Origin: Bacilli bacterium
GTDB taxonomy: Bacteria; Bacillota_I; Bacilli_A; RF39; UBA660
Direction: 5' to 3'
Assembly (NCBI GenBank): GCA_017626405.1
Contig: JAGAIS010000001.1
Coordinates: 358,885 to 422,884 of the forward strand
DNA: 64,000 nucleotides
The notes below the pieces were generated by a model. It was not told the origin of the DNA. It did no database searches and saw only the letters and a list, made by a program, of their open reading frames with translations. Both the position numbers and the translations under genes were made by a program. Positions 2,282 through 64,000 of the stretch are shown piece by piece. The first letter of the stretch is position 1, and each line of letters begins with the position of its first letter.

Positions 2282-3931
2282 ATGAAGAAAATGATTGGAG
2301 TTATAAACGATAATTTACGTTCAGTAGTTAATGGAATTAAAGAACATAGAGAGTCTACAGAAAATAATTTATCAGTTGTTAAGAATGAGATAGATGAAAA
2401 AGTTGCTACAGCTTCTAAATATAAAGAGGAAGTTGAAACTGCAAGAAAAACAATAATCAATCTAGAAACAGAAATATCCGAACTAGAGAATGACTTGAAA
2501 GAACTAAATGAAAAATTTGGTTCGAAGAACTTTAAAGAGATATTGGCTGCCGGAGATAAAGAAATCAATACAAAGATAATTGAAAAGAGAGCATCTATTA
2601 GTGAGCAAAATAGTATTATTGGAGAAATTACTAAGAAAGCTCATCAATTAAAGAAAGAATTAACGAAACTTAAAGATAAAAAAGTAGTTATTGAAGAAGA
2701 CTTAAATAAGACAATTATTTTAGAGGGATATTATAAAAAGAGAATTAATGCTATTATTGATTTTTCAGTTGAACATCCTGATGAACTTGCTACATATAAA
2801 GAGATTGAAGAAGTGGGATCTTTAAGTACGGAAGAAATAGAAGATATTGATATCAACAATATTATTGATGGACAAGTATTCAATGAAATAGATTCAATAT
2901 CTAGTGGTCAAGAAGTTGATTTAGATACAATAGATGAAGTTCTAAAGAATGCTGATGATTCGCTAGATGATGAAGAGATTAACGAGAGTGATACTGATTC
3001 AGAAGGCTATTTTTCTAATTTAGATGAAATAATAAATACGGCAAATGGAATAATTGAAAGCAATGAAGAGAAAGAATCAGAAGAACTTCATGAAGAGAAT
3101 AAATCTATCGAATCAGAAAATATAATAGATATTAAAGTAGATGAACAAATTGATGCAAAAGAAAATGAAAAACATATTCAACTTCATCAAATGAGTGAAC
3201 CTATTACTGTAAATCTAGATAATTTAGATGTAGATATGACAAATGGAATTAATCCAGAAATTGTATTTAGTAATGATAAGGGATTTAGTGATAGCAATTT
3301 AGTTAAGTGTGGATTGATAAAAGAAAACTTCGATCCAAAAGATTTAGAACTATTGAAACCTCTATTTGATAGGGAGAACACTTTAGAATTTATTAAAGTA
3401 TTAAAGAAGCATGGATTCAATGAAAGTAACATATATAATTCAGTAGGAGTATTATTATATGTTACTCCACAAAACCTTGATAAGATGTTGACGATGCTTG
3501 AGAGTGTTGCTTCTAAGGAAGATATCGACTATATATTCAGATATTTAGATAAAGTAAATATTAGTAAATTAGAGCAAAATATTCAAACTTCAAATGATAG
3601 TAGTTTAACTGAATTATTAATTACAGCTTTAAATGAAGAAAAGGAAGCGGATTTAGTTAATTTGTTATCGATAACGGAAAAAGATGTTAATTACATTAAG
3701 AAAAATTCATCTGAAGATTATAAATTAATGGTTAATTTCCCTGAAGTTATATTATCTAACTATAATACATTAAAGGAATATAAGATAGATAATATTACTG
3801 ACTGTATTGTTAAACATCCTCATAGATTTACATTTAATCCAAGTAAATTTGCATCTATTCTCGATAAATATGATGTTGAAGATTTAGTTAGATGTATTAA
3901 TAAGAATTCAGCTGTTATTGATAAATTATAA
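2282..3931 (+). CDS. coiled-coil / acidic protein of unknown function
   Basis: 549-aa ORF. The N-terminal ~170 aa are heptad-like (KEEVETARKTIINLETEISELENDLKELNEKF), followed by a long D/E-rich middle and a helical C-terminal region. Terminator follows. Confidence 0.7.
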   Translation: MKKMIGVINDNLRSVVNGIKEHRESTENNLSVVKNEIDEKVATASKYKEEVETARKTIINLETEISELENDLKELNEKFGSKNFKEILAAGDKEINTKIIEKRASISEQNSIIGEITKKAHQLKKELTKLKDKKVVIEEDLNKTIILEGYYKKRINAIIDFSVEHPDELATYKEIEEVGSLSTEEIEDIDINNIIDGQVFNEIDSISSGQEVDLDTIDEVLKNADDSLDDEEINESDTDSEGYFSNLDEIINTANGIIESNEEKESEELHEENKSIESENIIDIKVDEQIDAKENEKHIQLHQMSEPITVNLDNLDVDMTNGINPEIVFSNDKGFSDSNLVKCGLIKENFDPKDLELLKPLFDRENTLEFIKVLKKHGFNESNIYNSVGVLLYVTPQNLDKMLTMLESVASKEDIDYIFRYLDKVNISKLEQNIQTSNDSSLTELLITALNEEKEADLVNLLSITEKDVNYIKKNSSEDYKLMVNFPEVILSNYNTLKEYKIDNITDCIVKHPHRFTFNPSKFASILDKYDVEDLVRCINKNSAVIDKL

Positions 3932-3936
3932 GAATA

Positions 3937-3965
3937 GGTATCAGTTTTTACTGATATCTTTTTTT
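3937..3965 (+). terminator. Rho-independent terminator
   Basis: GGTATCAG / CTGATATC 8-bp stem (one G-U pair), 6-nt loop, T7 run. Confidence 0.65.
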
Positions 3966-4052
3966 GTCTATGAAATGTAAAAGTATGGGTTAAAACAAAT
4001 AATTTAACATATTTTTTTGTTATAATAAAAGTGATTACTATGGAGGTGTGAA

Positions 4053-6002
4053 ATGAAAAAGAATATTCTTGTTGTTATAATTTTGATTTTTTCTTTTATT
4101 ATTACAGTTCCTAGTGTGAGTGCAAATGAAAGAGGCAAAGTTTTTGGCGATTTTGTGTCTGTAAGAATGAAGGCTAGTTCTAGTTCTACAAAGATCTATG
4201 ATTTAATATATGGAAGTAATGTTACTATTATTGGAGAAGAGGGTTCTTTTTATAAAGTAATATATGATGGCATAAATACTGGCTATATGAGTAAGACTTA
4301 TGTATACAAAGACAACCAATATAAACTTGATAATCCTGAATATTGTAACTATTTAGTATCTATAGGATTCCCAGCCTCTTATTGTCCATATTTATCATAT
4401 GTTCATTCGAAACATCCAACTTGGACTTTTACTCCCATTAAAACGGGATTAGATTTCTATAATGATGTAGTGGATGGAGAAGAAGGTAAGAATTGTCTTA
4501 CAACTACTAATGATGTATATAGATCAGGAACAACTGTCTGTGATGCTGGAGGATATTACTTTGTCAATCAAACAGTAAATGCATACTTTTTGGATCCAAG
4601 AAATTTTCTTAATGAAAAAACTATCTTTATGTTTGAAAATTTGAATTATACTCCTATGTCTCAAAATAGAGAAGGAGTTAAAAGTATATTAGGTTCAACT
4701 TCTTTTTTAGTTACAAAAACTGATACTGATGGTTCATCTTATATTGATTATTATTTAGATGCTGGTTTTAAAACTAATGTTGCACCAATGCATTTAGCAT
4801 CACGTACTAAACAAGAAGGGGCGAGTGATGAATCTTATGGCCCCGTAACTGGTACTGTTACGTCGACGCTTCGAGAATTTGGAAATAGAACCTTATATGG
4901 ATTTTATAATTTTTATAATATAGGTGCTAGTAATGGTAGTAGTCCTCAATTAAAAGGTCTTGCCTATGCAGCAGGTTATAAGGGGCTCTCTGATACTATA
5001 ACAACGTATGGTCGTCCATGGAACACACGAAAAAAGGCGATTTATGGTGGGGCGGAGTTTATTGGTTCATCTTATATTAATGAAGGACAAAATACCTTAT
5101 ATCTTCAAAAGTTCAACGTTAATCCAAAGAATACAGGTACGCGTTATTCTCATCAATATATGTCTAATATATTGTCTCCTTATTCAGAAGGAAAGAGTAT
5201 GAAATCAGCATATGATAAGATGTCTTTAACGGAAACAGATTTTAATTTTGCTATTCCTGTTTATGAGAATATGCCTACCGAAACTTATCAGCCTTCTCTA
5301 TTAAATGGTAATAATTTGCTTGCAAGCATTAATATTGATGGAAAACCACTCGAAAATTTCGATTCCGATATCTTGGAATATACTCAATATATACTAGCTA
5401 GTAAGACGGAAGTTAGCATTTCGGCAGTTTCCAATTCTTCAGACTCAAAAGTTGAGGGAACGGGAACTATCAAATTGCCATTAGAGAAAAATGAAATCAT
5501 AATTAAAGTAACTGCTCAAAATGGAGAAATTAGAAATTATAAAATAAATATTATTAGAGTTCAAGATACAACTACTGTTGAAGAGGTAGTTTTGAAACTT
5601 GGTGTAAAGGCAAATGGAAACTATATGTATGGAATGAGTGTTGGTACCGATACATCAACTATTATTGCATCAATTTTAAAAATTAGTCCAACAGCATCTG
5701 TTGTTGTTAGTGATTCAGCGGGTAATATAAAAACTGGACCATTAGCTACGGGAGATAAAGTTAGATTAAAAACATTAACTAGTGAAGAAAAAACTTTTGA
5801 AATTGCAATAAATGGCGATGTAAATGGAGATGGATTAGTAGATATAAAAGATTTATTGCGCGTTCAAAAGTATTTGTTATCGACAGTTAATTTAGAAGGA
5901 TCTTCTTCTATTTCAGCCGATAATAATTATGATGGCAAGATAAATGTTCAAGATTTACTTAGAATACAAAAATATATATTAGGTAGTATTACTATATTAT
6001 AG
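4053..6002 (+). CDS. secreted peptidoglycan hydrolase: SH3-like + GH73-type N-acetylglucosaminidase + cadherin-like beta-sandwich + C-terminal dockerin
   Basis: Signal peptide (...VPSVSA). SH3-like segment FGDFVSVRMKASSSS..GSFYKVIYDGINTGYMSKTYV. Glucosaminidase-type block YFLDPRNFL, HLASRTKQEGAS, YNFYNIGA, GQNTLYLQKFNV, SHQYMSNILSPYSE. Cadherin-like module aa 418-502. Dockerin at the C-terminus. Confidence 0.85.
   Translation: MKKNILVVIILIFSFIITVPSVSANERGKVFGDFVSVRMKASSSSTKIYDLIYGSNVTIIGEEGSFYKVIYDGINTGYMSKTYVYKDNQYKLDNPEYCNYLVSIGFPASYCPYLSYVHSKHPTWTFTPIKTGLDFYNDVVDGEEGKNCLTTTNDVYRSGTTVCDAGGYYFVNQTVNAYFLDPRNFLNEKTIFMFENLNYTPMSQNREGVKSILGSTSFLVTKTDTDGSSYIDYYLDAGFKTNVAPMHLASRTKQEGASDESYGPVTGTVTSTLREFGNRTLYGFYNFYNIGASNGSSPQLKGLAYAAGYKGLSDTITTYGRPWNTRKKAIYGGAEFIGSSYINEGQNTLYLQKFNVNPKNTGTRYSHQYMSNILSPYSEGKSMKSAYDKMSLTETDFNFAIPVYENMPTETYQPSLLNGNNLLASINIDGKPLENFDSDILEYTQYILASKTEVSISAVSNSSDSKVEGTGTIKLPLEKNEIIIKVTAQNGEIRNYKINIIRVQDTTTVEEVVLKLGVKANGNYMYGMSVGTDTSTIIASILKISPTASVVVSDSAGNIKTGPLATGDKVRLKTLTSEEKTFEIAINGDVNGDGLVDIKDLLRVQKYLLSTVNLEGSSSISADNNYDGKINVQDLLRIQKYILGSITIL
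5811..5981 (+). other. dockerin module (two Ca-binding F-hand segments)
   Basis: NGDVNGDGLVDIKDLLRVQKYLL ... ADNNYDGKINVQDLLRIQKYIL. Both loops fit D-x-N-x-D-G-x-x-x-x-x-D. Confidence 0.8.
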
Positions 6003-6010
6003 GAGGAATT

Positions 6011-7573
6011 ATGAAGAAAATTTATTTATTATTAATGGGAGTATTTGCATTTTTGTTGTTTAGTCCTAATGTCTATGCTGCAAGCGCTAGTGTAAAAGTT
6101 AAAGCTAGTAATAACACATTGGTTGTTGGCTCAACTACCAAAGTAACAGTTACTGTTTCTTCTAGTGATTTAGGTGCATGGGAGTATTGTATTTCTTACG
6201 ATTCTAGTGTACTAAAGTTAACAAGTTCTACAGCTGATGCTAATACTTGTGTTAAAGCTGGTTATGTCGAGAAAAAGGGTCAAACTAGTTCATCTGAGAC
6301 ATTTACTTTTAAAGCTATTAAATCAGGGTCATCAAAGGTTACTGTAAAATCATATGCTATATATTCTTATAGTACTGAGACAGTAATGAATACTAGTGCT
6401 TCTAGTGTTACTATTAAGACTATGACTCAAGCAGAATTAGAGGCTACTTATTCGACAAATGCGAATCTTAAAAGTTTGACTGTAGATGGTTATGAATTAA
6501 CTCCAGCATTTGATAAGAATACTTTAGAGTATAGAGTGGAAGTTCCAAATGAAGTATCAAGTGTTAATATATCTCTAACTAAAGAAGACTTTACAGCTCA
6601 AATAAGTGGCGATGGTCTAAAAGAATTAACTGAGGGGGATAACAAGTTTGAAATAATAGTCACTGCTCAAAAGGGAAATTCTAAAACATATGTAGTTAAT
6701 GTCTATAGAAAAGAACTAGATCCAATTTCTGTAAAAATAGATAATAAAGAATATTTTATTGTAAGAAAGTCTGATGCTATTCCTCAATATCCTACATTTG
6801 TAGCAACAACTATAATGTATGGAGAAGATGAAATACCAGCACTTTATAGTGAAATTACTGATTATACTCTAATTGCTGTAAAAGATGAAGATGGAAATAT
6901 TTTAACTTTCATTTATAGAGATGGTGAATTTACAAGATATAATGAAGTAAAGAGCGATGCTCTAACAATATTTCCTAAAGAATTACCGGATGATGATAGA
7001 TTTAGCAATTTAATAAAAGTTAGTTTTGATTACAATGGGTATAAGTTAGAGGGATATCAAGTAAGTGAAAATTCAAATTATGCTATTATTTATGCTCAAA
7101 ACATTGAAACTGGCGATATAAAATTCTATTCACTTGATAAGAAAAACAGTACAATTCAAGAATACAACGAAGAGTTAAGCGAGAGTTATACTGAACGTAT
7201 GAATATTATGAAATATATTATTTTAGGTTTTATTGCTCTAACTATTATATTATTGTTAATTATAATATTTAGAAAACCAAAGAGAGTAGTTCAGACTGTT
7301 CCAATAAGAGAAGAGTGTTTAGATATTGAACAGGTTAATAAGAAACATAAAAAAGATAAAAAGATAAAAATACAAGAAATAATTCCTGAAGAAGATAAAG
7401 AAAATACAAATGTTATTAAACTAATTGAAGTTGAATCTAAAGAAGAATCTGAAGATGAAGATGATATCAATGATGAGGAAGCAGAAGGAGAAAGAACTCT
7501 AAGTAAAAGAGAAATGAAAAAGTTAAAAAAGCAAGAGAGAAAAAAAGAAAAGGCTAGACTAAAGGAATTCTAG
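6011..7573 (+). CDS. membrane-anchored cohesin-like protein (cohesin-like + cadherin-like + unknown domain + C-terminal TM + K/E-rich tail)
   Basis: Signal peptide (..SPNVYA). Cohesin-like aa 24-137 (ASASVKVKASNNTLVVGSTTKVTVTVSSSDLGAWEYCISYDSSVLKL...FTFKAIKSGSSKVTV). Cadherin-like aa 150-233 (LKSLTVDGYELTPAFDKNTLEYRVEV...IIVTAQKGNSKTYVVNVYR). TM helix aa ~399-420 (nt 7205-7270), then a charged tail. Starts 8 nt after the dockerin-hydrolase stop. Confidence 0.7.
   Translation: MKKIYLLLMGVFAFLLFSPNVYAASASVKVKASNNTLVVGSTTKVTVTVSSSDLGAWEYCISYDSSVLKLTSSTADANTCVKAGYVEKKGQTSSSETFTFKAIKSGSSKVTVKSYAIYSYSTETVMNTSASSVTIKTMTQAELEATYSTNANLKSLTVDGYELTPAFDKNTLEYRVEVPNEVSSVNISLTKEDFTAQISGDGLKELTEGDNKFEIIVTAQKGNSKTYVVNVYRKELDPISVKIDNKEYFIVRKSDAIPQYPTFVATTIMYGEDEIPALYSEITDYTLIAVKDEDGNILTFIYRDGEFTRYNEVKSDALTIFPKELPDDDRFSNLIKVSFDYNGYKLEGYQVSENSNYAIIYAQNIETGDIKFYSLDKKNSTIQEYNEELSESYTERMNIMKYIILGFIALTIILLLIIIFRKPKRVVQTVPIREECLDIEQVNKKHKKDKKIKIQEIIPEEDKENTNVIKLIEVESKEESEDEDDINDEEAEGERTLSKREMKKLKKQERKKEKARLKEF
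6080..6421 (+). other. cohesin-like module
   Basis: About 115-aa beta-rich module with the V.V...vG....V.V......l.a....i.YD...L pattern. Assigned by eye only. Confidence 0.5.
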
Positions 7574-7600: not shown

Positions 7601-8362
7601 GTGATAAATTTGAAATATATAAAATATTTTATATTAATTCTTTTATGCGTAGCTTCTTTTTATTTGTCAGATCAAGTTATTCTATATGTTGAGAATTTGA
7701 GCCCGATTATGCAAACAATTAAAGAAGTTGAAGATAATTATAATACGGAACCAATTGATGCAAAAATTGAAGGTAATACAATTATACCTGGTAAAAAGGG
7801 TACTGTTGTAAATGAAAGGGAATCATATTTAAAGATGAATGAATTTGGAGTATTCAATGAGAACTTCTTTGTATTTGATTATATAAAACCTGATATATCT
7901 CTGTCGGATTTCAAAGATAAAATAATTATTGGAAGTAGTAAACGCGAATATGTTTCTATTATTATTGACGATTGGAAATATTCTGATTATTTGAGTGATT
8001 TTGATTATTCATATTTGGTTAAAGATTCTAATAATTTAAAAATAATATCCAATGTAACATATATAAATGGAAGTATTGAGAATTATAAGAGTATTAATAA
8101 TTATTTAAAATCAAAGAAAAAACTGAGCAATATAGTTCTTGCAGAAAATGCCAATATTCATGAAAATAAAGATAAATATATTATTTCTCCTAGTTTGGAT
8201 TTATATCATTCTAACTATTATTCTAGTGTATCAAAGATTGAGGGAGGAATGATTATATATGTTCATGATAGTGTTACTTTATCGGAATTTAAAATATTAA
8301 TGGATACAATTAAATATAAAAAGCTAAAGTTAATGGAGTTAACTGAGTTTATTACCGAATAA
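7601..8362 (+). CDS. hypothetical N-terminally anchored protein
   Basis: 253-aa ORF. The start is ambiguous: GTG at 7601, or TTG at 7610 after AGGTGA. One N-terminal hydrophobic helix; no motif recognised. Confidence 0.55.
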   Translation: MINLKYIKYFILILLCVASFYLSDQVILYVENLSPIMQTIKEVEDNYNTEPIDAKIEGNTIIPGKKGTVVNERESYLKMNEFGVFNENFFVFDYIKPDISLSDFKDKIIIGSSKREYVSIIIDDWKYSDYLSDFDYSYLVKDSNNLKIISNVTYINGSIENYKSINNYLKSKKKLSNIVLAENANIHENKDKYIISPSLDLYHSNYYSSVSKIEGGMIIYVHDSVTLSEFKILMDTIKYKKLKLMELTEFITE

Positions 8363-13790: not shown

Positions 13791-15530
13791 ATGAGTGATC
13801 AATTACTTGGAATGATAACTATTTTTTATTTAGTTATAACGATCATTTTTGTTGCTGTTGCAGTTTATTTGACAATTAAAAACATTAAAAAACTTTATAA
13901 AGATACTTTAACTCAACTTGAAAGAAATAAAAATTTAATTATCAGTGGTTCTATATTGTCAGAACTTAATAAAGTAGAATCTCTAATAAACAATAAAGAT
14001 TTGCAGGAAAAATATAATTATTGGAAATCTCAATTTAAAACAATTAAAGATGAAGAAGTTCCAAAAATTACTGATGAATTAATCGAAGTAGAAGATTTAA
14101 TCGATCATAAGATGAATGGAGAAATAAGAGAAAAATTAATTAAAATAGAATTTGAAATATATCTTGTTAAGAGTAAATCTCAAAAGTTATTGGATGATAT
14201 TAAGGAAATTACTTTATCAGAGCAAAAGAATAGGGAAATTGTCACTAAATTGAAGAGCGATTATCGCACGATATTTTTAGCATATAATAACAATAATAAA
14301 GAGGATTATTCCCTAATTCAAATTCCATTAGAATTACAATTTGAAAATGTCGATAAATTATTTTCCGCTTTCGAGATGGCAATGGAAAATAATGTCTATA
14401 CGGAAGTTGGCAAGATTGTCAAAGCTCTTGATGATACGATAGGAAACCTAAAAATTGTAATAGAAGAAGCTCCTAGTATTATTCTAATGGGTAAAAATAT
14501 GATTCCTAATCGCATTGATGAAGTTAAGAAAATATATGATAAGATGACTAATGAAGGGTATAATCTAGATTATTTAAAAATAGATTATAATATAAGTGAG
14601 TCGGAGAAAAAGATTGCTGATATTTTTGATCGCTTAAATGTTCTTAACTTGGAAGATTCGGTTTTTGAACTACGTACTATACTAGATTATTTTGATCATC
14701 TCTATAATGATTTCGATAAGGAAAAAGTATCGAGAAAACTATTTGATGGCTATATTAGAAGTGTCATTATGAAATGTAAAAAGTTAAAGAAAATTGTTGG
14801 CAATCTATCTAATAATATTGATAATATTAAAATTAGCTATGATTTAACTGACGATGATGTTAAGATAATATCTGAATTACAGGAGAATATTTTCGAGTGC
14901 GAAACTAAGTATGATGAAGTTATTGCTCTATATCGAGAGAAGAATACTGCGTATTCAAAACTAAATAAGGAAATGGAAATTATTAATCAAAAATTATTAA
15001 AGTGTGAAGATCGTCTTCATTATACTTTGAATAGTTTAGGAAGTTTAAAGGAAGATGAAATAAGGGCAAGAGAACAATTGGATGAAATTAGGAGTATTAT
15101 TAAGCAAGCAAAGAGTCATATGTCATCTTTTAAACTTCCGATTGTACCAAAGAATTATTATGTCGAATTAGAAGAGGCCAATGAAGCTATTAGAAATATG
15201 GTTATTGAACTTGAGAAACAGCCAATATCAATTAAAACATTAAACTTGAGAGTTGATACAGCAAGAGATCTTGTTTTGAAAGTTTTTAATACGTCACTTG
15301 AAATAGTTAAAACGGCATCGATGGCAGAAAATGCAATCGTGTTCGGCAACCGTTATAGGAGAGTTAATCCAAGTATTAATGCTGGACTTACAAAAGCGGA
15401 AAGAGAATTCTTTAAGGGAAATTTTAAGAGTAGTTTAGAATATGCCATTAATTCAATTAATATTGTAGAACCTGGTATTCATAAAAAATTACTTGATGCT
15501 TATAAATTAGAACAAGAAAGGGCTAGTTAA
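13791..15530 (+). CDS. ezrA: septation ring formation regulator EzrA
   Basis: Single N-terminal TM helix (ITIFYLVITIIFVAVAVYLTI) followed by ~540 aa of coiled coil. The 579-aa size is typical. Lies next to a cysteine desulfurase gene, which I recall being near ezrA in Bacilli. Confidence 0.82.
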   Translation: MSDQLLGMITIFYLVITIIFVAVAVYLTIKNIKKLYKDTLTQLERNKNLIISGSILSELNKVESLINNKDLQEKYNYWKSQFKTIKDEEVPKITDELIEVEDLIDHKMNGEIREKLIKIEFEIYLVKSKSQKLLDDIKEITLSEQKNREIVTKLKSDYRTIFLAYNNNNKEDYSLIQIPLELQFENVDKLFSAFEMAMENNVYTEVGKIVKALDDTIGNLKIVIEEAPSIILMGKNMIPNRIDEVKKIYDKMTNEGYNLDYLKIDYNISESEKKIADIFDRLNVLNLEDSVFELRTILDYFDHLYNDFDKEKVSRKLFDGYIRSVIMKCKKLKKIVGNLSNNIDNIKISYDLTDDDVKIISELQENIFECETKYDEVIALYREKNTAYSKLNKEMEIINQKLLKCEDRLHYTLNSLGSLKEDEIRAREQLDEIRSIIKQAKSHMSSFKLPIVPKNYYVELEEANEAIRNMVIELEKQPISIKTLNLRVDTARDLVLKVFNTSLEIVKTASMAENAIVFGNRYRRVNPSINAGLTKAEREFFKGNFKSSLEYAINSINIVEPGIHKKLLDAYKLEQERAS

Positions 15531-40520: not shown

Positions 40521-41222
40521 ATGAAAAAGAAATTATTTTTAGGATTATTTGGTATGACTTTATGTTTACTACCAAATAATGTGCTTGCTTTGAATGCTTC
40601 TGTAAATGTATCTGGAAGCGATACTGTTAATGTTGGAGAAAATTTTAAAATAAGTGTATCAATTAATGATGTTATGGGTACTAATGATGGCATCGAAAGT
40701 TTTAGTGGACAAGTTAGTTATGATAGAGAATTGTTAGAATATATTGGGGTTGAGACAAACAATTCAAACTATGATTTTTTAGTTAATGAAGATAATTTAA
40801 AATTAGCAGCTTTAGATTATACTATGGCAAGAGGTATAAAAGAAGATACAATTATATATACTTTTACTTTTAGAGCAAAAAGTACTGGAAATACTAGTAT
40901 TTCTATTGATAATTTAAAAGTAACTGATTCAAAATCATATTTGGATGTAAATGTTAATTCTTTAAACTTTTCTATTATTAATAAACCAACGACGACTGCG
41001 AAATCAAATATATCTACTAGAGTAATTGCTAGTAAGACATTTAGTAAGAATGCTGTAATAGAAAGTACAACTTTAACTACTGAGACAACTACATCAACTA
41101 GTACAACTATTAAGGCAAACAATGTTGAAATTAAAAAAAATGAAAAACAAACTTTAGTAAAGTCTATAAAGAATGCTATAAGTGATTTCATTAATAAGAT
41201 TAAAAATATATTTAGAGCATAA
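40521..41222 (+). CDS. secreted cohesin-like protein with Thr-rich tail
   Basis: Signal peptide (..NNVLA). Cohesin-like aa 24-153 (nt 40590-40979): LNASVNVSGSDTVNVGENFKISVSINDV...FSGQVSYDRELLEYIGVE...YTFTFRAKSTGNTSISIDNLKVTD. Then KPTTTAKS..TTLTTETTTSTSTT and a basic amphipathic C-terminus. Confidence 0.62.
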   Translation: MKKKLFLGLFGMTLCLLPNNVLALNASVNVSGSDTVNVGENFKISVSINDVMGTNDGIESFSGQVSYDRELLEYIGVETNNSNYDFLVNEDNLKLAALDYTMARGIKEDTIIYTFTFRAKSTGNTSISIDNLKVTDSKSYLDVNVNSLNFSIINKPTTTAKSNISTRVIASKTFSKNAVIESTTLTTETTTSTSTTIKANNVEIKKNEKQTLVKSIKNAISDFINKIKNIFRA

Positions 41223-41955: not shown

Positions 41956-44900
41956 ATGAGAAGTAAAAGAATTTCAAACAACAATTTTTTATTTAATATA
42001 AAACTAGTATTAACATGTATAATTTTGTTAGTACTTTTTTGCGTTTTTCCAATAGATGTAAAAGCTATTCATGGTTCAAATGTCTATGAATTTTCTTATT
42101 CTGGTAATTATGAGGTGTTTACTGTTCCTAAGAGTGGCTGGTATAGATTGGAAACTTGGGGAGCTCAAGGTGGATATAGAACAAACTCATCTATGGGTGG
42201 AAAAGGTGGATACTCAAAAGGTGAAGTATATTTAGAACGTGGACAAGAATTATATGTTTATGTTGGTGGATTTGGTAAAACTCACGGTGGATGGAATGGC
42301 GGTGGATTTCAACCTGTCACTAAACAATATGGTGGTGGAGCAACTGACATTCGTATTGGCGGAACTTCTTTATATCACAGAATAATTGTCGCTGGTGGTG
42401 GTGGTACTGATGGTGCTACTGGAATAGCTGGTGGCGCTGGAGGGGGATACTGGGCTGGTAATACTTCTGGTGGATGCGGTTCTGGTGGTAATGCAGCTTC
42501 TATGTCTGGTGCTGGTAGTCATCGTGCTTCATTCGGTATTGGTGGAGACGGTGCATCATGGAGTGGCGGACATGCTGGAGCCGGTGGCGGCGGCTGGTAC
42601 GGCGGCGGCGGTGCTGACCCTGATGGCTCTGGAGATGATGACAAAGGTGGTGGAGGCGGATCTGGATTTGCTTGGTCTGCTCAAAATGCCACTTATGCTC
42701 CTAGTGGATACAAGGTTCCAACGAGCCTTTATATGACTAATTTATCATTTGGTACTGGTTCAAGAAGTGGTGATGGTTTTGCAAGAATTACTGAATTAGT
42801 ACTTGATGGTATTACTTCTATTGAAATTAATAGAGGTACTGTTCCAATTGATTTTAAATACAACAAATACACATATTATCTAACGGTCGATAACGATGTT
42901 GAAAATGTTAGATTTAATATTGAAACAGAAGATGACTTTACATTGACTCAAAGCAATAGAAGTACAGATATGACTACTAATTTGAGTGTTACTAATATAA
43001 TTACTTTGACTGATAATGAAACTGGTCTAGTTACTACTTATACAGTTAATGTTAGAAAACAAAATTACTATTTAGCTAATGTTAATGGCAATGTAAGGTA
43101 TAACTACAGTTATACTGGAGAAACAGAAAAGTTCTACGTTCCTGCAACAGGTATTTATACGATTCAAACTTGGGGAGCTCAAGGTGGTTATCGTAATGCA
43201 AATTACCAATATGGTGGACGTGGAGGATATAGTTCTGCTGATATGTACCTTGTAAAAGGAGAAGTTCTATATGTAAATGTTGGCGGACAAGGAAATACCA
43301 TTTCCCTTGATGGAAAAACTAAAGGATGGAATGGTGGCGGTTATGCAACCGGATATTATGCTAATGGTGGTCAATGGTATGAAACTACTAACATTTATGG
43401 TGGTGGAGCTAGTGATGTAAGATATGGTGGAAATACCCTTTATAATCGTGTTGTTGTAGCTGGCGGCGGTGGTGCTGTTGGTGCTACTGGTTATGCTGGT
43501 GCGCCAGCATGGGGATCTTCTGGTACAGGATGTGGTTCTGGTGGTACTGCGGGAGGTTATACTGCTGGTGGTACTTATCGTGCTACATTTGGACGCGGTG
43601 GTGATGGCGGCGCTTGGAGCGGCGGATATGCTGGAGCCGGAGGCGGAGGATGGTACGGCGGAGGCGGTGCTAATCCTGATGGTTCTGGAGATGATGACAA
43701 AGGTGGTGGAGGCGGATCTGGATTTGCCTTTACATCCGGACTTGCTCAATATGTTCCAAGTGGATATTTAGTAACAAGCAAAAATTATCTAACTAACGCA
43801 ACTTTATTGGGCGGAGGTTCTTCTTTCCCTTCACCTAGTGGCTCAAATGAAACTGGACATGGCGGAAATGGTTATGTTAGAATTAGCCCAAAATTAATAA
43901 ATGGTGTACAATCTGTAACTATTAATGATGGAGAAGTACCAATAGATTTTGACTATACAGTTTATACATACTATATTCCTATTCTAGATAGTGTTGAAAA
44001 CGTCAATGTCTCATTTATTCTAAATGATGGATATTCAATGGTTGAAAGCTATCAAGGAAGTTATGTCCTAGGAGATAAAAAAGATTATGTCTATTCTGTT
44101 GATGTTATTAATGATATAACAGGATTAACTGTAAATTATACAATTCATTTTAAGAAACAAAGTGGATATTTAATGAGTGGAACTACTGGTTCTTATGGCT
44201 ATTCTTATAATGGTTATCCACAAAAATTTGTTGCTCCTGCAGCAGGTATTTATACATTTGAAGCTTGGGGAGCTCAAGGTGGACATAGGGGTGCCAATAA
44301 TAGTGGTCGCGGTGGTTACTCGACTGGACAGATGTTTTTAAATAAAGGCCAAATAGTTTATGTCTATGTTGGTTCTAATGGCAATAACAAAGGATGGAAT
44401 GGTGGTGGTTACCAACCTGGCATTGGAATATATGGTGGTGGTGCATCAGATATTCGTGTTGGTGGGCAATCGCTTTACAATAGAGTTCTTGTAGCCGGTG
44501 GTGGTGGTTCCGTTGGTGCTTCTGGAAATTATGGAGGTGTCGGCGGAGGTACTACCGGAGGATATGGTGTCGGTTCTTATGGTGCGTTAGGTACTCCTGG
44601 TACTCAGACTTCTCCTGGTGGCGGAGGAATTGCTGGTTCTTTTGGAATTGGTGGTAATGGTTACTCTGCTAATGGAGGACATGGTGGAGCCGGAGGCGGC
44701 GGTTGGTACGGCGGTGGCGGTTCAACCGTTGATGGTTCTGGCGACGATGATAGAAGTGGTGCTGGAGGTTCTGGTTTTGTATGGACTAGCGATACAGCAA
44801 GTTATGTACCTGATGCTTACCTTGTATCGGAAAACTATTTCTTAATGAGTGCTAAAACTATTGCTGGAAATGCGGCTTTTCCTAATATAAATGGAACAGG

Positions 44901-47900
44901 AAATGAAACGGGTCATGCAGGAAATGGATTTGTTAAAATTTCATTCTCATTATCATATGATTTTGATATTACGGTAAGTGACAATGTTACATTAGATAAA
45001 GAATTTGACTATGATATTAAAGAATATGTAGGTACTTTATCAACTAATGATTCTTCTTTAGTAAATTTCAATGTAAGTGAAAGTGATTCAATATTAAAAG
45101 TAGTTGGAGATGGAACTCAAGAAATTCATGTAGGTGATAATACATTCAATATAGTTATCACTTATGTAAATGGAGCTGTCGAAACATTCACTTATCATAT
45201 TTATCGCGAAGCCAATAATATTGATTATTTGAATAATATTTACTTTGATGAACATCCATTAAGTGAATTTAATGGTGGAGTAGAATTTAATAAAGATACT
45301 TTAGAGTATAATTTAACTTTACCTTATAATATGGATGAATATGAATTGACAGTAGACAAAGGTTCTGCAGATCAAATTATTACTAACTTAGGTCATGTAA
45401 TAAATAAAAACAATAGTTATAGTATTCCAATTTCCGTTACTAATGAAACGGGAAATAGTACTAGAACTTATATTTTAAATATAACTTTACCTCATTCAAG
45501 TGCGTTAAAGAAAATAACGTTTACTAGTAGTGGAGATACTGTGATAGAATTCCCAATTGAGGAAGGTAAGACAGAATTCGATATAGATTTTGAAAGTTAT
45601 ATTGCGAGTATGATTGCAACGCCTGAAGTATATGATGGAGAAGCTAGTGCTGTAGTAACTGGTGATGGTTATATTGAAGATGATGAATATATAATCGAAA
45701 TTGATGTAACTGAACCTCATGTTGATCCAACTCATTATGTGTTGCATATTAGACGTATTACTGTTAGTGGTTACGAAAAAGGATTAACTTACAATGGGAA
45801 TGTCCAAACAGTTATCATTCCTTATAGTCACGAGTATTTATTGCAAGCATGGGGAGCTCAAGGTGGCCGTGGTGGTGGCCGCGGTGGTTACTCTTATGGT
45901 TCCGTATTCCTAGAAAAGGGAACAGTTCTTTATGTTTATACTGGTGGATCTGGTGATTCTGGCGGATTTAATGGTGGAGGTACTTCAAAAGCCGGTTATG
46001 GTGGAGGAGCATCAGATATTCGTGTTGGAACAGATTCATTATACAGCCGTGTTATCATAGCTGGTGGTGGTGGAGGTCACGGAAGTGACGGATGTGCTGC
46101 TGGTGGCGTCGGTGGAGGCTTAAGCGGTGGAGGATCTGCTGGTCAAGGCTCATGTGGAACTCAAGCTGGTGGAGGTACTCAATTAGATGCCGGTGCTTAT
46201 GGTCAATATGGCAATGCTTTAGGAAACAAAGGTAAATTTGGACGAGGTGCTAATGCTCCATCTACTGGTGGTTCTTACTACGGTGGTGGTGGAGGCGGAG
46301 GCTTCTACGGAGGAGGTTCAGGTTCTACTGCTGGTTGGTCAAACGGTGGTGGTGGTGGTTCAGGTTATGTTTATACTACTGAAACTGCATCTTCTGTTGA
46401 AAGAAATACAAACTGGTTATTAGATGAAAATTATTATTTAACTGACGCTGCTACTTTAAGTGGTTCTAATCACTTTGTTAGTCCAAGCGGTTCTATGGAA
46501 ACTGGACATTCTGGAAATGGATATACAAAAATATCTATTCCATATCAAAATAGTGAAAATAATTTCTTAAAGGGAATTGTTTCAAATAAAGGTATCGTAA
46601 CTCCTGAAGAATGGGATTATGATGAGACAACTTACTATTTAAATCTAAGTAGTAGTGATGTTGAAATCAATATTGAAGGTATACCTGCAGATGGAAAAGC
46701 TAGTGTAGTAGGAAACGGAAACTACGTTATTGAAGCTGGTACTACTGAGATTAATTTAATCGTAACTAGTGAAAGTGGACACACTAGAACTTATACATTA
46801 ATTGTTATAAGAGATGCGGATTCTAATCCAAATCCTAAAAATATCAGTGTTAATGGTATGCTTGAACAATATTGTTCATTAATTGAAGGAGCTTGTGATT
46901 ATTCATTTGATGTTGATGTTCATGAATATGATATTACAGTTCCTTATCAAATAAGAGAAATTGTAATGGTTGTTAATAAAGGACATTATTTCCAAACTGT
47001 AAATGGTGATGGATTATATGCCCTTAATGGTGGAATGAACGATATTGTTATTAATATAACAAGTGAAGATCAAAGTTCTTCTTCAGAATATGTTTATCAT
47101 ATTAATAGAGATATGACTGGAAATGCAGATTTGAGAGTTTTAAGACTTACTGATCCAGAATATGAATTGAACTATTCATATAATGTTAGTGATTATTATG
47201 TTACTATTCCTCATGAAAAGGAAACGGTTACATTAGAAGCTATTGCAGATGATCCAAATGCTACAGTTAATATAGTATATCCTGATGGAGAATTGGATTA
47301 TGGTACTAATGTAGTTTCTATAACTGTTACTGCTCAAAATGGAGTTACTAAAGAATATCGAGTATTTGTAAATCGCCTTGAAAGTAATAATGCATTCTTA
47401 AATGAATTAGTTATTTCTAATATAACTGATGGTAAAGATGAAATTATTACACCAACGCCAGAATTTAATAAAATGAACTTAACATATAATATGGTTTTGG
47501 AAAACGATGTTACTAAGATTAAATTTGATGGTGTGGCTGAAGATGAATTTGCAAGTATTGAAGGATTAGGGGAGTACGAATTAAATGTTGGCAATAACAC
47601 GATTAAAATTACGGTTGTTGCTCAAGATGAGAGTAAATTAACTTATACATTTAATGTAAATAGAAAAGCCAATGCAAATGCATTACTATCTTCATTATCG
47701 ATGGATGAACATGCGTTTACTGAAGCTTTTGAATCAGAAAAATTTGTTTACTATGTATATGTGACTGGAGAAATTACTACTGCTACTATTAATGCAACTC
47801 CAGAAAAAGATACATCTACATATCAGATAATTGGCAATACAAGTAGTTTAGTTGCCGGTAAAAATGAGATTGTTGTTCGTGTAACTGCCGAAGATGGAAC

Positions 47901-50900
47901 ACAATGTGATTATCGTATTATTATTAATCGTACAGGTTATAATGATTCAACATTGTTAACGCTTGATGTTACAAATGGAATAGAGTCTTATACATTTACT
48001 CCTCCATTTGATCCTCTATACGATACATACTCACTAAATCTTCCTAATGATGTTACAAATGTCATATTAACAGCTACTTCTGATGCTGCTAAGCGAGTAA
48101 AAATAGGTTCTTCTAGTGTATTTGTTAAGAAGATTAACTTATTAACTGATAACCCTTCAGTTACATCTATAACAGTTACTGCTGAAGACGGAACAGTTAC
48201 TACTTATAATGTTACAATTACTCGTGAGCTATCTAGTGATAACTCTCTAGATGTATTAGAAGTGGCAGATCATGAATTAATACCAAATTTTGAAAGTGAT
48301 GTCTTAAATTACAGTTTTACAACATATGAACATTCACTTTCTATTTCGGCAATACCAACTAATCGATTTGCTAAAGTAGTTATAAGTGATAATTATAAAA
48401 ATCTAGTTCCGGGAGAAAATACTATAACTATTGATGTTACTTCAGAAACTGGAGATAAGAGAACTTATACATTGACAGTTACTCGTGAATTATCAAGCGA
48501 TAATACATTAAAAGAATTGTCTATTAGAGGAAATCAATTAATACCAGATTTTGATCCTACAGTAGATAATTACTCATTTGTAACTTCTTATGAAGGATTA
48601 GATATTTCTGCTATTCCAAATAATAAATATGCAAGTGTAGAAATATTAGGTAATATTAAACCTTTAAACGAAGGACTTAATGTTATTGAGATAAAAGTAA
48701 CTGCTGAAAATGGAGATATCAAATACTATACGATTTCTGTAACTCGAGTATTAGATGATAATTCATTCCTTAGTAATTTGACTACTAACGAAGGCATAAA
48801 TGAAACATTTGATAAAGAAGTTCTAGATTATACTTTAACAACTGAGAGTGAGTCTATTTCAATCATAGCTACTTTAGAAAGTGAATTTTCTAAATATGAT
48901 ATTTTAGATAGTGATTCTAATAAAGTAACTAGTATGCCAACTAATTTAAAATTAGGTGATAATGTATTTAGTATTGTTGTTACAGCTCAAAATGGCTTAA
49001 TAAAAACTTATAATTTAACTATTACTCGCAATTTGAGAAGTGATGCTAAATTAAAAGGTTTAAGTCCAATAAACGAAAATTTTGTAAGTACAGTTTATAA
49101 CTATACTTATACTACTACTGAACATGAAGTTACTATTACTCCAGTTTTAAGTGATGAATTACATGCAACTTACAAAATATTCAATGTTGATTATGATGAG
49201 GTTTCAAATAAAGTATCATTAAATACTGGATCTAATGTATTCTTGATTCAAGTAACTGCTGAAGATGGTACTGTTCTTATTTATAATTATGTAGTTACTC
49301 GCAATCCAAAAGATATAGCTACTATTGAATCTGTATCATTTGAAACTAGTCCAAAGATTGATAAGGATAATTTTGTATATTCTGTTACAACTGATGAAAC
49401 AAGTTTAAATTTTGATGATATGGTATTAACAGATCCTTATTCAACCGTATTAATTGATGGCAATAGTGATTTTGTCAATGGTGAAGAATCAATTGTAACC
49501 GTTATAGTTACTAGTGAATCGGGTAAGGTAAAAAATATTTATACATTTAATGTAACTAAAGTTATTTCTCATGATTCAACTTTAAAGAATATTAAACTAG
49601 GGGAATATGAATTATCTCCAAAGTTCAATAGAGATACGTTGGAATATGAAGTATTTGTTCCAAATGATTTACAGAATGTTACTTTGGAAGCATATTCTTC
49701 TAAAAACACTTCTATTATTAAGAGTATACTTTTAGATAGTGAAGAATTAGTAACTTCTTATAATAAAGATTTTAATGAAAGTATAACAATGCATCCAATA
49801 GCTGATGATCCAATTATTACTATATTAGTAGAAGCTGAAGATGGTACAACAAGTACGTATAAATTAAATGTTTTAAGTGAAGACTTAATTAATAATTATT
49901 TAAAAACTTTAACTGTAAGCTGTGGAGAATTAAATCCAGTATTTGATAAGAAGACTCAAGAATATGTTGTTTATATTCCGGATGATCAAACTACATGTAC
50001 AGTTGAAGGTGTTTCTGAAGTTAATATTGCTACTGTTACAGGAAATGGAGAATATACACTTCCATTAGATCAGAAGAGTGTAAGAGCTAATATTGAAGTA
50101 ACAAGTGCTAGAGGAGAAAAAAGAGTTTATACAGTAAGAATTAGAAGAGGTATTTCTAGTGAATCTAGATTATCTGATCTATCTATTAAGGGTTATAGTT
50201 TTGATATTCCTTTTGATCCTGATACTTTTGAATATAATGTTGTACTACCAAATCAAATAAGTCCATTAGATGAAAACTATTTTGAATATACACTTATGGA
50301 TGAAGATGCAACAATAGATTTCCCAAGTTTAGATTTAGTAACTAATGTTGTTAATAAATATGTTATAGTTGTTACTGCTGAAGACGGAGTAACTAAGAGT
50401 GCATATACTATTAATGTAACTAGAACTAAGAGTGATGATACTACTTTAAATACTGTTGATGTCATTGTAGGAAGTGAAACAATTACATGTACAATTGATG
50501 CTGATACAAAGAGTTGTACAGTTGATGTTCCTGCTGATACTAGTGATTTTGAAATTAACGCCCATCTATCTAATAATCAAAGCGTTAATCCAGCTAATAT
50601 TAGTAAACATGTATTTAATTCAGCTGATTATACTAAGACAGTAGAATTAAAAGTAATTGCTGAAAATGGTGTTGATTTTGAAAACTATACAGTTAACTTA
50701 AACAGATTATATTCAGATAACAATGATTTAATGAGTATCGAAGTTAACTATGTTCCTTTAGATGGATTTAGTAGTTCAAAACTTACTTATAATAAAACTG
50801 TTATGGGAACATTATCACAAGTAATGATAAGTGTAACTTTAGCTGATTCTAAAGCAACAGTTGTTACTGATTTAAGTCAGCCATTTGCATTAAATTATGG

Positions 50901-63461: not shown

Positions 63462-64000
63462 ATGAAAAAGTTTAAAGCAAAATTTCAAAGTATATTATTA
63501 GTATTATTATTAATAATTAGTTGTTTTGGTGGAATTACTGATGTTTTTGCTACATCTACTGCCAAAGTTGAATTCGATGGAAACTCTTCAGTTTCCGTTG
63601 GATCCAATATAACTGTTAAATTAAAAGTTACATCAGTAACTTCTGATCAGGCAAGCTATAATGGTGTCGTAAGTTTGAGTGGTAACCTTTCTTTTGATTC
63701 GACATATTTAGAATATGTTTCAGCAACTCCAGCTACTAGTCCTTATGCTTTTAGTATTAATAAGAACAACAATTATAAAATCGCTGGAATGGATTTTTCA
63801 GGAAGTAATGGAATTAAATCATCGACAGTTGTTTTTACTTTTGTATTTAAGGCATTGAAGGCAGGAACAACTCAAGTTACATTAACTAATGCAAAGTTAA
63901 CAGATTCAACTTTCCAATATACAACTAGTGTAGTTCCTAAAAATATAACTATTGGTGGTTCTAATCCAACTACACCTACAACTCCAACAACTCCAACGAC
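63462..64000 (+). CDS. secreted cohesin-like protein with Pro/Thr linker, 5' part only (runs off the right edge)
   Basis: GGAGGAG SD, ATG at 63462, 10 nt after the previous stop. Own translation: MKKFKAKFQSILLVLLLIISCFGGITDVFATSTAKVEFDGNSSVSVGSNITVKLKVTSV...LSFDSTYLEYVSATP...VVFTFVFKALKAGTTQVTLTNAKLTD...GGSNPTTPTTPTTPT. Confidence 0.7.
   Translation, partial: MKKFKAKFQSILLVLLLIISCFGGITDVFATSTAKVEFDGNSSVSVGSNITVKLKVTSVTSDQASYNGVVSLSGNLSFDSTYLEYVSATPATSPYAFSINKNNNYKIAGMDFSGSNGIKSSTVVFTFVFKALKAGTTQVTLTNAKLTDSTFQYTTSVVPKNITIGGSNPTTPTTPTTPT

Follow-up and report, generated by a model that had tools for sequence, protein, structure and literature searches.

How does a bacterium keep an enzyme that cuts peptidoglycan on the cell that made it? 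The spatial confinement of dangerous wall hydrolases is a central question in cell-wall biology, and the known ways to achieve it are wall-binding repeats, a transmembrane anchor of the enzyme's own, and membrane complexes, FtsEX or SpdC for example, that activate the enzyme. The question is raised here by two adjacent open reading frames (ORFs) in a 64-kb stretch of contig JAGAIS010000001.1 from a Bacilli bacterium, the whole of which we call the window. ORF1 (positions 4053-6002) encodes a predicted secreted protein of 649 amino acids (aa) in which SH3_3, GH73, cadherin-like, X and dockerin modules follow one another. ORF2 (6011-7573) encodes a predicted type I membrane protein of 520 aa, made up of a cohesin, a cadherin-like module, a domain that we call D3-D4, a transmembrane helix and a cytoplasmic tail. 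Both genes, and all other features of the window given below, lie on the plus strand. An original prediction, made from the DNA letters, had suggested that ORF1 is an autolysin held on the ORF2 protein by a cohesin-dockerin contact. Following it up computationally, we favour with moderate confidence the view that ORF1 and ORF2 are one operon, whose products assemble into a peptidoglycan hydrolase (autolysin) complex that tethers itself to the cell.

The first step is the identity of the enzyme. Residues 1-24 of ORF1 (4053-4124, ending in ...VPSVSA) were taken as a signal peptide from sequence inspection and a hydrophobic segment at residues 1-26, and this cleavable-looking signal peptide is the only hydrophobic segment of the protein. 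It is followed by the SH3_3 domain (residues 35-84, 4155-4304; Pfam PF08239 at 5e-09, PDB matches 2kt8 and 2kyb), a probable peptidoglycan-binding module, and by a region of the GH73 endo-beta-N-acetylglucosaminidase type (residues ~92-412, 4326-5288), which was placed by the family profile and the NCBIfam model SagB and includes a family-specific N-terminal extension. SagB is the best NCBIfam match of ORF1 (5.6e-11; 42 bits against a cut-off of 425). In phmmer searches ORF1 matched the C-terminal half of solved GH73 enzymes (Atl, SagB, Acp, AtlE), and a profile of 33 family members run against the PDB found 6fxo, the Staphylococcus aureus Atl glucosaminidase, at 4e-23, 6fxp and 6u0o (SagB) at ~4e-22, 5wqw (Clostridium perfringens Acp) at 5e-18 and 4pi7 (AtlE) at 3e-16. 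These matches span ~170-250 residues, which is most of the catalytic domain. The predicted catalytic general acid is E255 (codon 4815-4817, in RTKQ-E-GAS). It is invariant among the 33 homologues and aligns with the Glu of ETGNG/ETGAV in 6fxo, 6fxp, 6u0o, 5wqw and 4pi7; the catalytic Glu, whose loss the original prediction had named as speaking against it, is thus present. The sequence HQYMSN (5151-5168) is the counterpart of the GH73 YATD motif and aligns with HQYATD/HQYASD of the solved enzymes, and the Tyr of this motif corresponds to Y369, which is invariant in the family. We regard the assignment of ORF1 to GH73 as solid at the level of sequence comparison: it is a divergent GH73 enzyme outside the reach of the Pfam model, with predicted activity.

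The C-terminal third of ORF1 provides the docking part. A cadherin-like beta-sandwich (residues 424-502, 5322-5558; Pfam PF12733 at 8.5e-08) is probably a spacer, and the family alignment delimits a conserved beta module, the X module (residues 506-585, 5568-5807), directly before the dockerin. The dockerin itself covers residues 586-649 (5808-5999) and is matched by Pfam PF00404 over residues 588-643 at 6.9e-12 (45.8 bits, where the cut-off is 22.9); dockerins in the PDB, for instance 3ul4_B, match as well. Its calcium-binding loops are DVNGDGLVDIKD and DNNYDGKINVQD, in which a motif scan places the loop residues at D589-N591-D593-D597-D600 and D623-N625-D627-N631-D634, and the helices that follow are near-identical (DLLRVQKYLL and DLLRIQKYIL). 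This is the layout of a type I-like dockerin, with two duplicated segments that have D or N at loop positions 1, 3, 5, 9 and 12 and then a helix. Helices so highly conserved and internally symmetric look typical of functional dual-binding dockerins. Pfam, NCBIfam and the profile searches against the PDB therefore bear out the predicted combination of an SH3-like domain, a GH73 domain, a cadherin-like module and a canonical dockerin.

What, then, could this dockerin bind? ORF2 begins with a signal peptide (residues 1-23, ...SPNVYA, 6011-6079), recognised by sequence inspection and hydrophobicity, which leads directly into a compact module of residues 24-138 (6080-6424). The module was identified as a cohesin from Pfam matches of homologues, profile searches against the PDB and Foldseek. 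The Pfam Cohesin model matches 13 of 36 ORF2 homologues (E<=0.01), the best at 2.5e-8, and the top PDB matches of the ORF2 family profile are cohesins at 5e-4 to 4e-3 (2y3n_A at 5e-4, then 3l8q, 1tyj, 5g5d and NagJ 2jh2). We modelled ORF2 with AlphaFold2 (AF2) on 36 homologues, with a mean predicted local distance difference test score (pLDDT) of 79 and values of 85-93 in the ectodomain. The model has a beta-sandwich at residues 25-138, and the best single-domain Foldseek matches of this N-terminal module are again cohesins: 2vo8 (TM-score, TMt, 0.68), 6kgd (0.62), 2xdh (0.63) and 5n5p (0.56). The Foldseek search with the whole protein was swamped by meaningless multi-domain matches, and the single-domain rows alone were usable. 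By the model and Foldseek the module is a beta-sandwich that resembles the nine-stranded fold of solved cohesins. The evidence at family level thus supports a compact cohesin, and its binding is predicted.

The rest of ORF2 looks like a stalk with an anchor. A cadherin-like beta-sandwich (residues 153-234 in the sequence and in the model, 6467-6712; Pfam PF12733 at 2.3e-12) is present in 36 of 36 homologues and is followed by D3-D4, a membrane-proximal, beta-hairpin-rich domain seen in the AF2 model (residues 236-388, 6716-7174, with the beta-rich part at 240-384). In the model a helix at residues 387-420 contains the transmembrane helix, which hydrophobicity and AF2 place at residues ~402-420 (7214-7270); the RKPKR that follows it fits the positive-inside rule. 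A C-terminal transmembrane helix is found in 82 of 84 ORF2 homologues, and the remaining two are cut by contig ends. AF2 and composition then predict a cytoplasmic tail rich in Lys and Glu (residues 421-520, 7271-7570), which is modelled as disordered and acidic at 428-494 and as a confident helix at 499-519. Homologue Pfam matches, profiles, Foldseek and hydrophobicity hence agree with what had been predicted for the gene 8 nt downstream of the hydrolase, namely a cohesin-like and a cadherin-like module held by a transmembrane helix.

The two genes are arranged as one would expect for a unit. ORF1 is preceded by the ribosome-binding site GGAGGTG (4042-4048, by sequence reading), and its stop codon TAG is overlapped by the AGGAGG ribosome-binding site of ORF2 (6000-6010), which leaves an intergenic gap of 8 nt; gap and overlap are consistent with an operon with coupled translation. 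On the 5' side a terminator-like hairpin (3936-3959, with a T-run to 3969) consists of a 10-pair stem followed by TTTTTTGTCT. It stands between ORF1 and an upstream gene for a coiled-coil protein and forms the 5' boundary of the ORF1-ORF2 transcription unit. Because of the short gap, the AGGAGG over the ORF1 stop and the hairpin 5' of ORF1, the pair looks like a two-gene operon.

If the two proteins work together, their genes should stay together in other genomes. ORF2 relatives were sought in one genome per species of the Genome Taxonomy Database (GTDB) and were found in at least 319 species genomes, of which the loci of the best 80 were examined. A GH73 gene with a dockerin ends just upstream of the ORF2 homologue in 79 of these 80 loci and the 80th has no upstream DNA, so that the two genes co-occur in 79 of 79 informative loci while their flanking genes vary. 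The gap between them is typically ~8-14 nt, with a median of ~12 nt in 84 related loci. All of the best 80 loci come from metagenome-assembled genomes (MAGs) of gut or rumen bacteria that are not in culture and are assigned to "Bacilli", Erysipelotrichales or "Tenericutes"; Ca. Coprovivens, Ca. Onthocola, CAG:582 and CAG:609 are among them. The genes polA and dedA, a 253-aa ORF that follows ORF2 in the window, and the upstream coiled-coil gene are kept around the pair only in nearer relatives. Distant ORF1 homologues (36-39% identity) have a cohesin-cadherin-transmembrane gene 8-9 nt downstream in unrelated surroundings, where the neighbours are a wall-assembly gene (LCP/PASTA), the S10 ribosomal operon or helix-turn-helix regulators. 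When the ORF2 ectodomain was searched against representative proteins, giant multi-cadherin proteins filled the results, which are therefore uninformative on family size.

When plasmid and secondary-replicon records were searched by tblastn, the same colinear pair turned up in Vescimonas fastidiosa MM35 (Oscillospiraceae, Clostridia), a human gut isolate that is in culture; there it lies on a secondary replicon of 861 kb (NZ_AP023416.1, 503342-506849). In the first protein, WP_212821509.1, an SH3 domain and a GH73 domain with the canonical HQYATD are followed by a Pro/Glu linker, then by an X module and a dockerin, and there is no cadherin-like module of the ORF1 type; the family hidden Markov model (HMM) matches this protein at 6.6e-17, in line with a shared X module. 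The second, WP_212821511.1, is encoded 10 nt downstream; it starts with a signal peptide, continues with cohesin-like and cadherin-like modules and D3-D4, and ends in a transmembrane helix and an acidic tail. Since the same colinear pair occurs in Vescimonas and its neighbours vary elsewhere, the pair is shared by two classes of Bacillota and travels as one unit. A homologue search seeded with the Vescimonas partner protein, meant to extend to named Clostridia such as R. bicirculans, was saturated by Vescimonas variants of 95-98% identity in public metagenomes. We also considered a phage origin and rejected it, as there was one weak match, to GH73 only, among 2.9 million viral contigs (IMG/VR).

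Do the dockerin and the cohesin also evolve together? In 79 non-redundant ORF1-ORF2 pairs the mirror-tree correlation of the dockerin was highest with the cohesin (r = 0.75). It was 0.60 with the GH73 domain on the same polypeptide, 0.51 with the X module, 0.31 with D3-D4 and 0.09 with the cadherin-like module of ORF2. When the GH73, D3-D4 and cadherin-like distances were regressed out, a partial correlation of 0.545 between dockerin and cohesin was left, compared with controls of 0.20 (X-cohesin), 0.04 (SH3-cohesin) and ~0 (dockerin with the other ORF2 domains). Among all ORF1 x ORF2 columns, mutual information with average product correction (APC) was most enriched for dockerin x cohesin, with 0.307% of its column pairs in the top 100 against 0.053% expected. 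In the top pairs, cohesin residues 82, 65, 94 and 96 are coupled to 603/637 and 599/633, which are symmetric positions of the dockerin helices. Types of dockerin helix track types of cohesin in the same way: ALDLLQVQK goes with GSWQMDLNYDK...M, INDLILVQS with GWEYCL...CV, and I[KQ]DLLRVQK with AWEYCISYDSS...CVKAG. By their order along the modelled fold, the co-varying cohesin positions 54, 59, 65, 82, 94, 96 and 117 would fall approximately on cohesin strands 3, 5, 6 and 8. We take this co-variation as supportive of a dockerin-cohesin partnership, not as decisive.

The gene linkage, the distant homologues, the Vescimonas pair, the co-variation and the catalytic Glu together support the predicted autolysin held on a membrane protein through cohesin and dockerin. 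From them we infer physical binding, membrane topology, enzymatic activity and a substrate in the cell's own wall, and a possible course of events is as follows. Both proteins would be exported by Sec, and ORF2 would be retained in the membrane by its single C-terminal transmembrane helix, with D3-D4 and then the cadherin-like module forming a stalk that presents the cohesin at its far, membrane-distal end. The C-terminal X-dockerin of ORF1 would plug into this cohesin in a Ca2+-dependent manner. The enzyme might in this way stay on the cell that produced it, at a distance from the membrane set by the stalks and spacers of both proteins, and its SH3_3 and GH73 domains could act on the cell's own glycan strands in wall expansion, daughter-cell separation or the trimming of new strands. 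Because the nearest characterised enzymes are Atl, SagB, AtlE and Acp, the gene context is one of housekeeping or wall assembly and the pair is widespread, the sequences point to a housekeeping autolysin or a role in glycan-strand processing. A more far-reaching version is that the pair is a dedicated and ancient autolysin tether common to large lineages of uncultured gut Bacilli and to Oscillospiraceae, in which the plug replaces LysM, SH3b, CWB or SLH modules and the rigid ORF2 stalk of several modules is a ruler that fixes the cutting distance and makes the tether a main determinant of glycan-strand processing or cell separation; this we put forward tentatively, as something possible that we would not yet lean on.

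Several observations weigh against the proposed tethered autolysin. Pfam Glucosaminidase (PF01832) gave no match in ORF1 even at E<=0.1 and none precomputed for the homologues, and the Asp of the YATD motif is replaced by Asn in the ORF1 lineage. On the ORF2 protein of the window Pfam reports Cadherin-like alone and does not match Cohesin (PF00963), and the putative cohesin is short, at ~115 aa against ~140 for typical cohesins. Since Pfam missed both domains in the window proteins, the GH73 and cohesin calls were made from family profiles and the structure model. The partial correlation between GH73 and cohesin is 0.546, and cohesin columns also couple with GH73 columns in the mutual information scan; since the cohesin couples with GH73 in both respects, shared phylogeny explains part of the co-variation. 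The window as a whole encodes three dockerin-bearing and three cohesin-like proteins, so that cross-pairing is possible. Finally, our data do not distinguish the cell's own wall from the wall of other bacteria as the substrate.

This last point leads to the alternative that survives best, in which the same complex is a surface weapon or a foraging tool that lyses neighbours or collects pieces of peptidoglycan in the gut. For rumen metagenomes, lysozyme-like modules with a dockerin tag have been interpreted as means of competing with other microbes (PMC6487960). Foreign peptidoglycan could be bound by the SH3_3 domain, and with the cohesin at the membrane-distal tip of the stalk and the spacers of ORF1 an outward display might be possible. 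However, the pair occurs in the many species genomes counted above and stands among housekeeping or wall-assembly (LCP/PASTA) genes, the closest characterised GH73 relatives are endogenous autolysins, and neither an immunity gene nor toxin-like features are evident at the locus. We therefore consider a weapon or foraging tool rather unlikely.

A role of ORF2 mainly as regulator or transducer is unlikely as well. Docking would then only deliver the enzyme, and D3-D4 and the tail would link the hydrolase with the machinery of division or with the synthesis of the wall, as in FtsEX-PcsB/CwlO or SpdC-SagB. D3-D4 gives this idea some weight. The domain is strongly conserved across the ORF2 family including the Vescimonas homologue, and modelled alone it reached a pLDDT of 93.5 and a predicted TM-score (pTM) of 0.82. 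Foldseek found no match for it in the PDB at E<=0.001, and weak matches to OspA and to glucan-binding repeats were not significant, so D3-D4 may be an undescribed fold or family. In addition, a membrane partner controls SagB, one of the GH73 enzymes that match best (bioRxiv 10.1101/2020.05.21.109470). The tail speaks on both sides. In the window protein it is 100 aa long with 21 Lys and 21 Glu, as had been predicted, and the helix in which it ends, the only part that is not disordered, is conserved among nearer homologues. As a general feature the long tail did not hold up, because tails in the family measure anything between 0 and 173 aa (median 54), and in many members they are shorter than 15 residues. 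For this reason cytoplasmic signalling cannot be general, and a coupling role of the tail, if there is any, would be lineage-specific. Moreover, no conserved ATPase or kinase partner lies beside the pair, and the coiled-coil gene is set apart by the terminator-like hairpin and conserved only in nearer relatives.

Might the adjacency of the two genes reflect co-regulation only, with the ORF2 cohesin binding other dockerins and the ORF1 dockerin another cohesin or none? The specificity of cohesin-dockerin contacts is not readable from sequence alone, and the number of such modules in the window leaves room for other partners. The original prediction had gone in a related direction and taken ORF2 as the only obvious membrane anchor for dockerin proteins encoded 34 kb away. 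Two genes are concerned. The first (41956-56406) encodes a giant secreted protein of 4816 aa with 4 glycine-rich domains of the ALK/LTK type, 26 cadherin-like repeats, Big_2 and a divergent dockerin-like module at the C-terminus; the second (56540-63451) encodes a protein of 2303 aa that has 14 cadherin-like repeats and whose C-terminus is a degenerate dockerin-like region (GDIVGDGEVELFDAVQIVNHVLG...) with an eroded second calcium-binding loop. These two dockerins are recognised by the family HMM (1.3e-8 and 1.5e-13, respectively) and stay below the Pfam threshold (22.1 and 15.4 bits), and in BLASTP the 2303-aa protein shares 33% identity with the X-dockerin region of ORF1. The 5' part of the 4816-aa gene has a local G+C content of 41%, compared with ~28% in the window.

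With the HMM of the ORF2-family cohesin we found two further cohesin-like modules in the window, and their genes bracket the two giant genes. One is a predicted secreted protein of 233 aa (40521-41222; cohesin-like at residues ~28-155, HMM E 1.8e-12), which matches the NagJ cohesin of C. perfringens weakly but over its full length. A signal peptide precedes the module, and a linker rich in Thr and Ser and an amphipathic helix at the C-terminus follow it; there is no transmembrane helix, and Pfam finds nothing in this protein. The other (63462-63998, HMM E 3.5e-9) begins 11 nt downstream of the stop codon of the 2303-aa gene, has a signal peptide and a PTTPTTPT linker, and runs off the window end, which leaves its anchor region outside. 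As a cohesin gene stands next to every one of the dockerin genes, there are candidate partners other than ORF2, and the claim of a single anchor had to be given up. ORF2 is the sole cohesin-bearing protein of the window with a visible transmembrane helix, and it could still anchor the distant giant proteins. However, the giant genes have cohesin-like neighbours of their own, their recognition helices VADVTKIRNVVL and LFDAVQIVNHVL differ from those of ORF1, the adjacency of ORF1 and ORF2 is kept in every informative locus and in Vescimonas, and the dockerin-cohesin co-variation was the strongest among the domain pairs tested. Mere co-regulation is thus highly unlikely in our view. As part of the far-reaching version given above, and just as tentatively, neighbour-encoded cohesin-dockerin pairs, of which the window has three, could represent the general surface-attachment system of the lineage. 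Most improbable of all is that ORF2 carries at its N-terminus an Ig-like or adhesin domain of a generic kind and not a working cohesin, that the dockerin is only a calcium-binding stabiliser and that the two proteins do not touch: Pfam Cohesin is silent on the window protein, 12 of 36 homologues show weak chagasin-like (Inhibitor_I42) matches and TM-scores of 0.6-0.68 are moderate, but cohesins top both the profile and the single-domain fold matches, Pfam detects Cohesin in the homologues mentioned, the dockerin helices are conserved and symmetric, and the gene linkage is strict.

How does the proposed tether compare with known systems? Non-cellulosomal cohesins and dockerins are well known, and in C. 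perfringens such pairs link secreted host-glycan-degrading enzymes to one another. The C. perfringens NagH/NagJ/NanJ complexes are likewise a non-cellulosomal use of cohesin and dockerin in a gut Firmicute, and the C. perfringens cohesins 2vo8, 2jh2 and 2o4e are among the best fold or sequence matches of the ORF2 cohesin. However, we know of no C. perfringens pair that links a wall hydrolase to a membrane anchor, nor of one whose partner genes form a dedicated operon. The anchoring scaffoldins of cellulosomes and amylosomes (SdbA/OlpB of Clostridium thermocellum, ScaE of Ruminococcus flavefaciens, Sca of Ruminococcus bromii) likewise place a secreted enzyme with a C-terminal dockerin on a cohesin-bearing surface protein, and the X module before the ORF1 dockerin recalls the type II and type III anchoring pairs of cellulosomes. 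In contrast to these, the cargo here would be a peptidoglycan hydrolase and not an enzyme for plant polysaccharides or starch. ORF2 has one cohesin, no carbohydrate-binding module and one dedicated partner from the same operon, its anchor is a C-terminal transmembrane helix instead of SLH repeats or a sortase signal, and its cohesin is unusually compact and below Pfam detection. By analogy, ORF2 might therefore work like an anchoring scaffoldin without being part of a cellulosome, and the pair suggests a variant of known anchoring, in which cohesin and dockerin serve a housekeeping wall hydrolase through a dedicated membrane stalk.

Another comparison is with SagB-SpdC of S. aureus, where a membrane protein partner keeps a GH73 enzyme from the same cluster of sequences at the membrane surface and places it on glycan strands. 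SagB has its own N-terminal transmembrane helix, whereas ORF1 is predicted to be soluble after cleavage of its signal peptide; SpdC is an eight-transmembrane, CAAX-protease-like protein, whereas ORF2 is single-pass without similarity to CAAX proteases, and the partners are not homologous. The functional analogy would be close and the mode of attachment completely different.

A GH73 enzyme with docking modules has been noted before. For Ruminococcus bicirculans one dockerin and one cohesin 'associated with a GH73 enzyme' are mentioned (Ze et al. 2015, PMC4611034, citing Wegmann 2014), which resembles our case in that GH73 is linked to a lone cohesin and dockerin in a non-cellulolytic gut Firmicute. 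The sentence in that paper mentions them in passing and gives no architecture, membrane anchor, operon, distribution or mechanism. Since a homologous pair exists in the related Oscillospiraceae member Vescimonas fastidiosa, the R. bicirculans set is probably the same module as ORF1-ORF2, as far as a comparison by description goes. Ruminococcus albus strains are listed with a dockerin-bearing GH73 (Dassa 2014 table, PMC4081043), and dockerin-carrying genes appear under the SpoIID KEGG entry in cockroach-gut Firmicutes (PMC10266427). The operon, the transmembrane-anchored cohesin stalk protein, the distribution and the mechanism were not described in the literature that we searched, outside of which lie Wegmann 2014 and Peer 2009.

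If our interpretation is true, docking a GH73 enzyme onto a membrane stalk via cohesin and dockerin would be a further, modular solution to the confinement of wall hydrolases, and some of the 'orphan' non-cellulosomal cohesins and dockerins would gain a physiological role. The pair is widespread in abundant uncultured gut Bacilli, and the cultured V. fastidiosa MM35 makes direct testing possible. At present the first protein is labelled 'dockerin type I domain-containing protein', with the Gene Ontology (GO) term 'polysaccharide catabolic process', and the second 'cadherin-like beta sandwich domain-containing protein'. On the Vescimonas GH73-dockerin protein this term is probably misleading and inherited from the dockerin. 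Such labels mask the likely role in wall remodelling and may inflate the counts of 'cellulosome components' in metagenome surveys.

Some records that carry the pair deserve a comment. Among the MAG records L007, L010, L011, L012, L017, L031, L034, L036, L041, L063, L065, L066 and L076 several are titled 'uncultured Muribaculaceae bacterium', and one pair-bearing record is titled 'Methanobacteriaceae archaeon'. On a module of low-G+C Firmicutes these titles probably reflect assemblies that were mislabelled or binned wrongly. L012, the record most closely related to the window (81-90% protein identity), belongs to the oddly titled ones. Assembly CAYSFO01 contains two copies of the pair on different contigs (L007 and L036; ORF2 identity 50% and 45%), so some genomes seem to have paralogous pairs, unless this bin is mixed.

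The window has a G+C content of ~28% and carries housekeeping genes on the plus strand (polA, mutM, ezrA, tRNA synthetases, lspA, lexA, miaB, scpAB). The pair does lie among housekeeping genes, as had been stated, and it is not directly upstream of polA, because a 253-aa ORF (7601-8362) with a GTG start and an N-terminal hydrophobic segment intervenes. This ORF keeps its place between ORF2 and polA in nearer relatives, and only its N-terminal ~95 residues resemble the YlxY sporulation/polysaccharide-deacetylase family (3e-10, far under the cut-off). On the other side of the pair, the coiled-coil gene (2282-3931) encodes an acidic protein of 549 aa with an N-terminal coiled coil and without a signal peptide, for which no homologue was found in Pfam, NCBIfam or the PDB. 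It stands upstream of the pair in nearer relatives at 32-82% identity. We considered it as a part of the core module and rejected this, as the hairpin separates it from ORF1 and its conservation is limited to those relatives. About 6 kb downstream of the pair lies a gene for a full-length EzrA septation-ring regulator (13791-15530; Pfam 4.5e-94), from which it follows that this organism divides with a conventional, FtsZ-based apparatus like that of walled Firmicutes.

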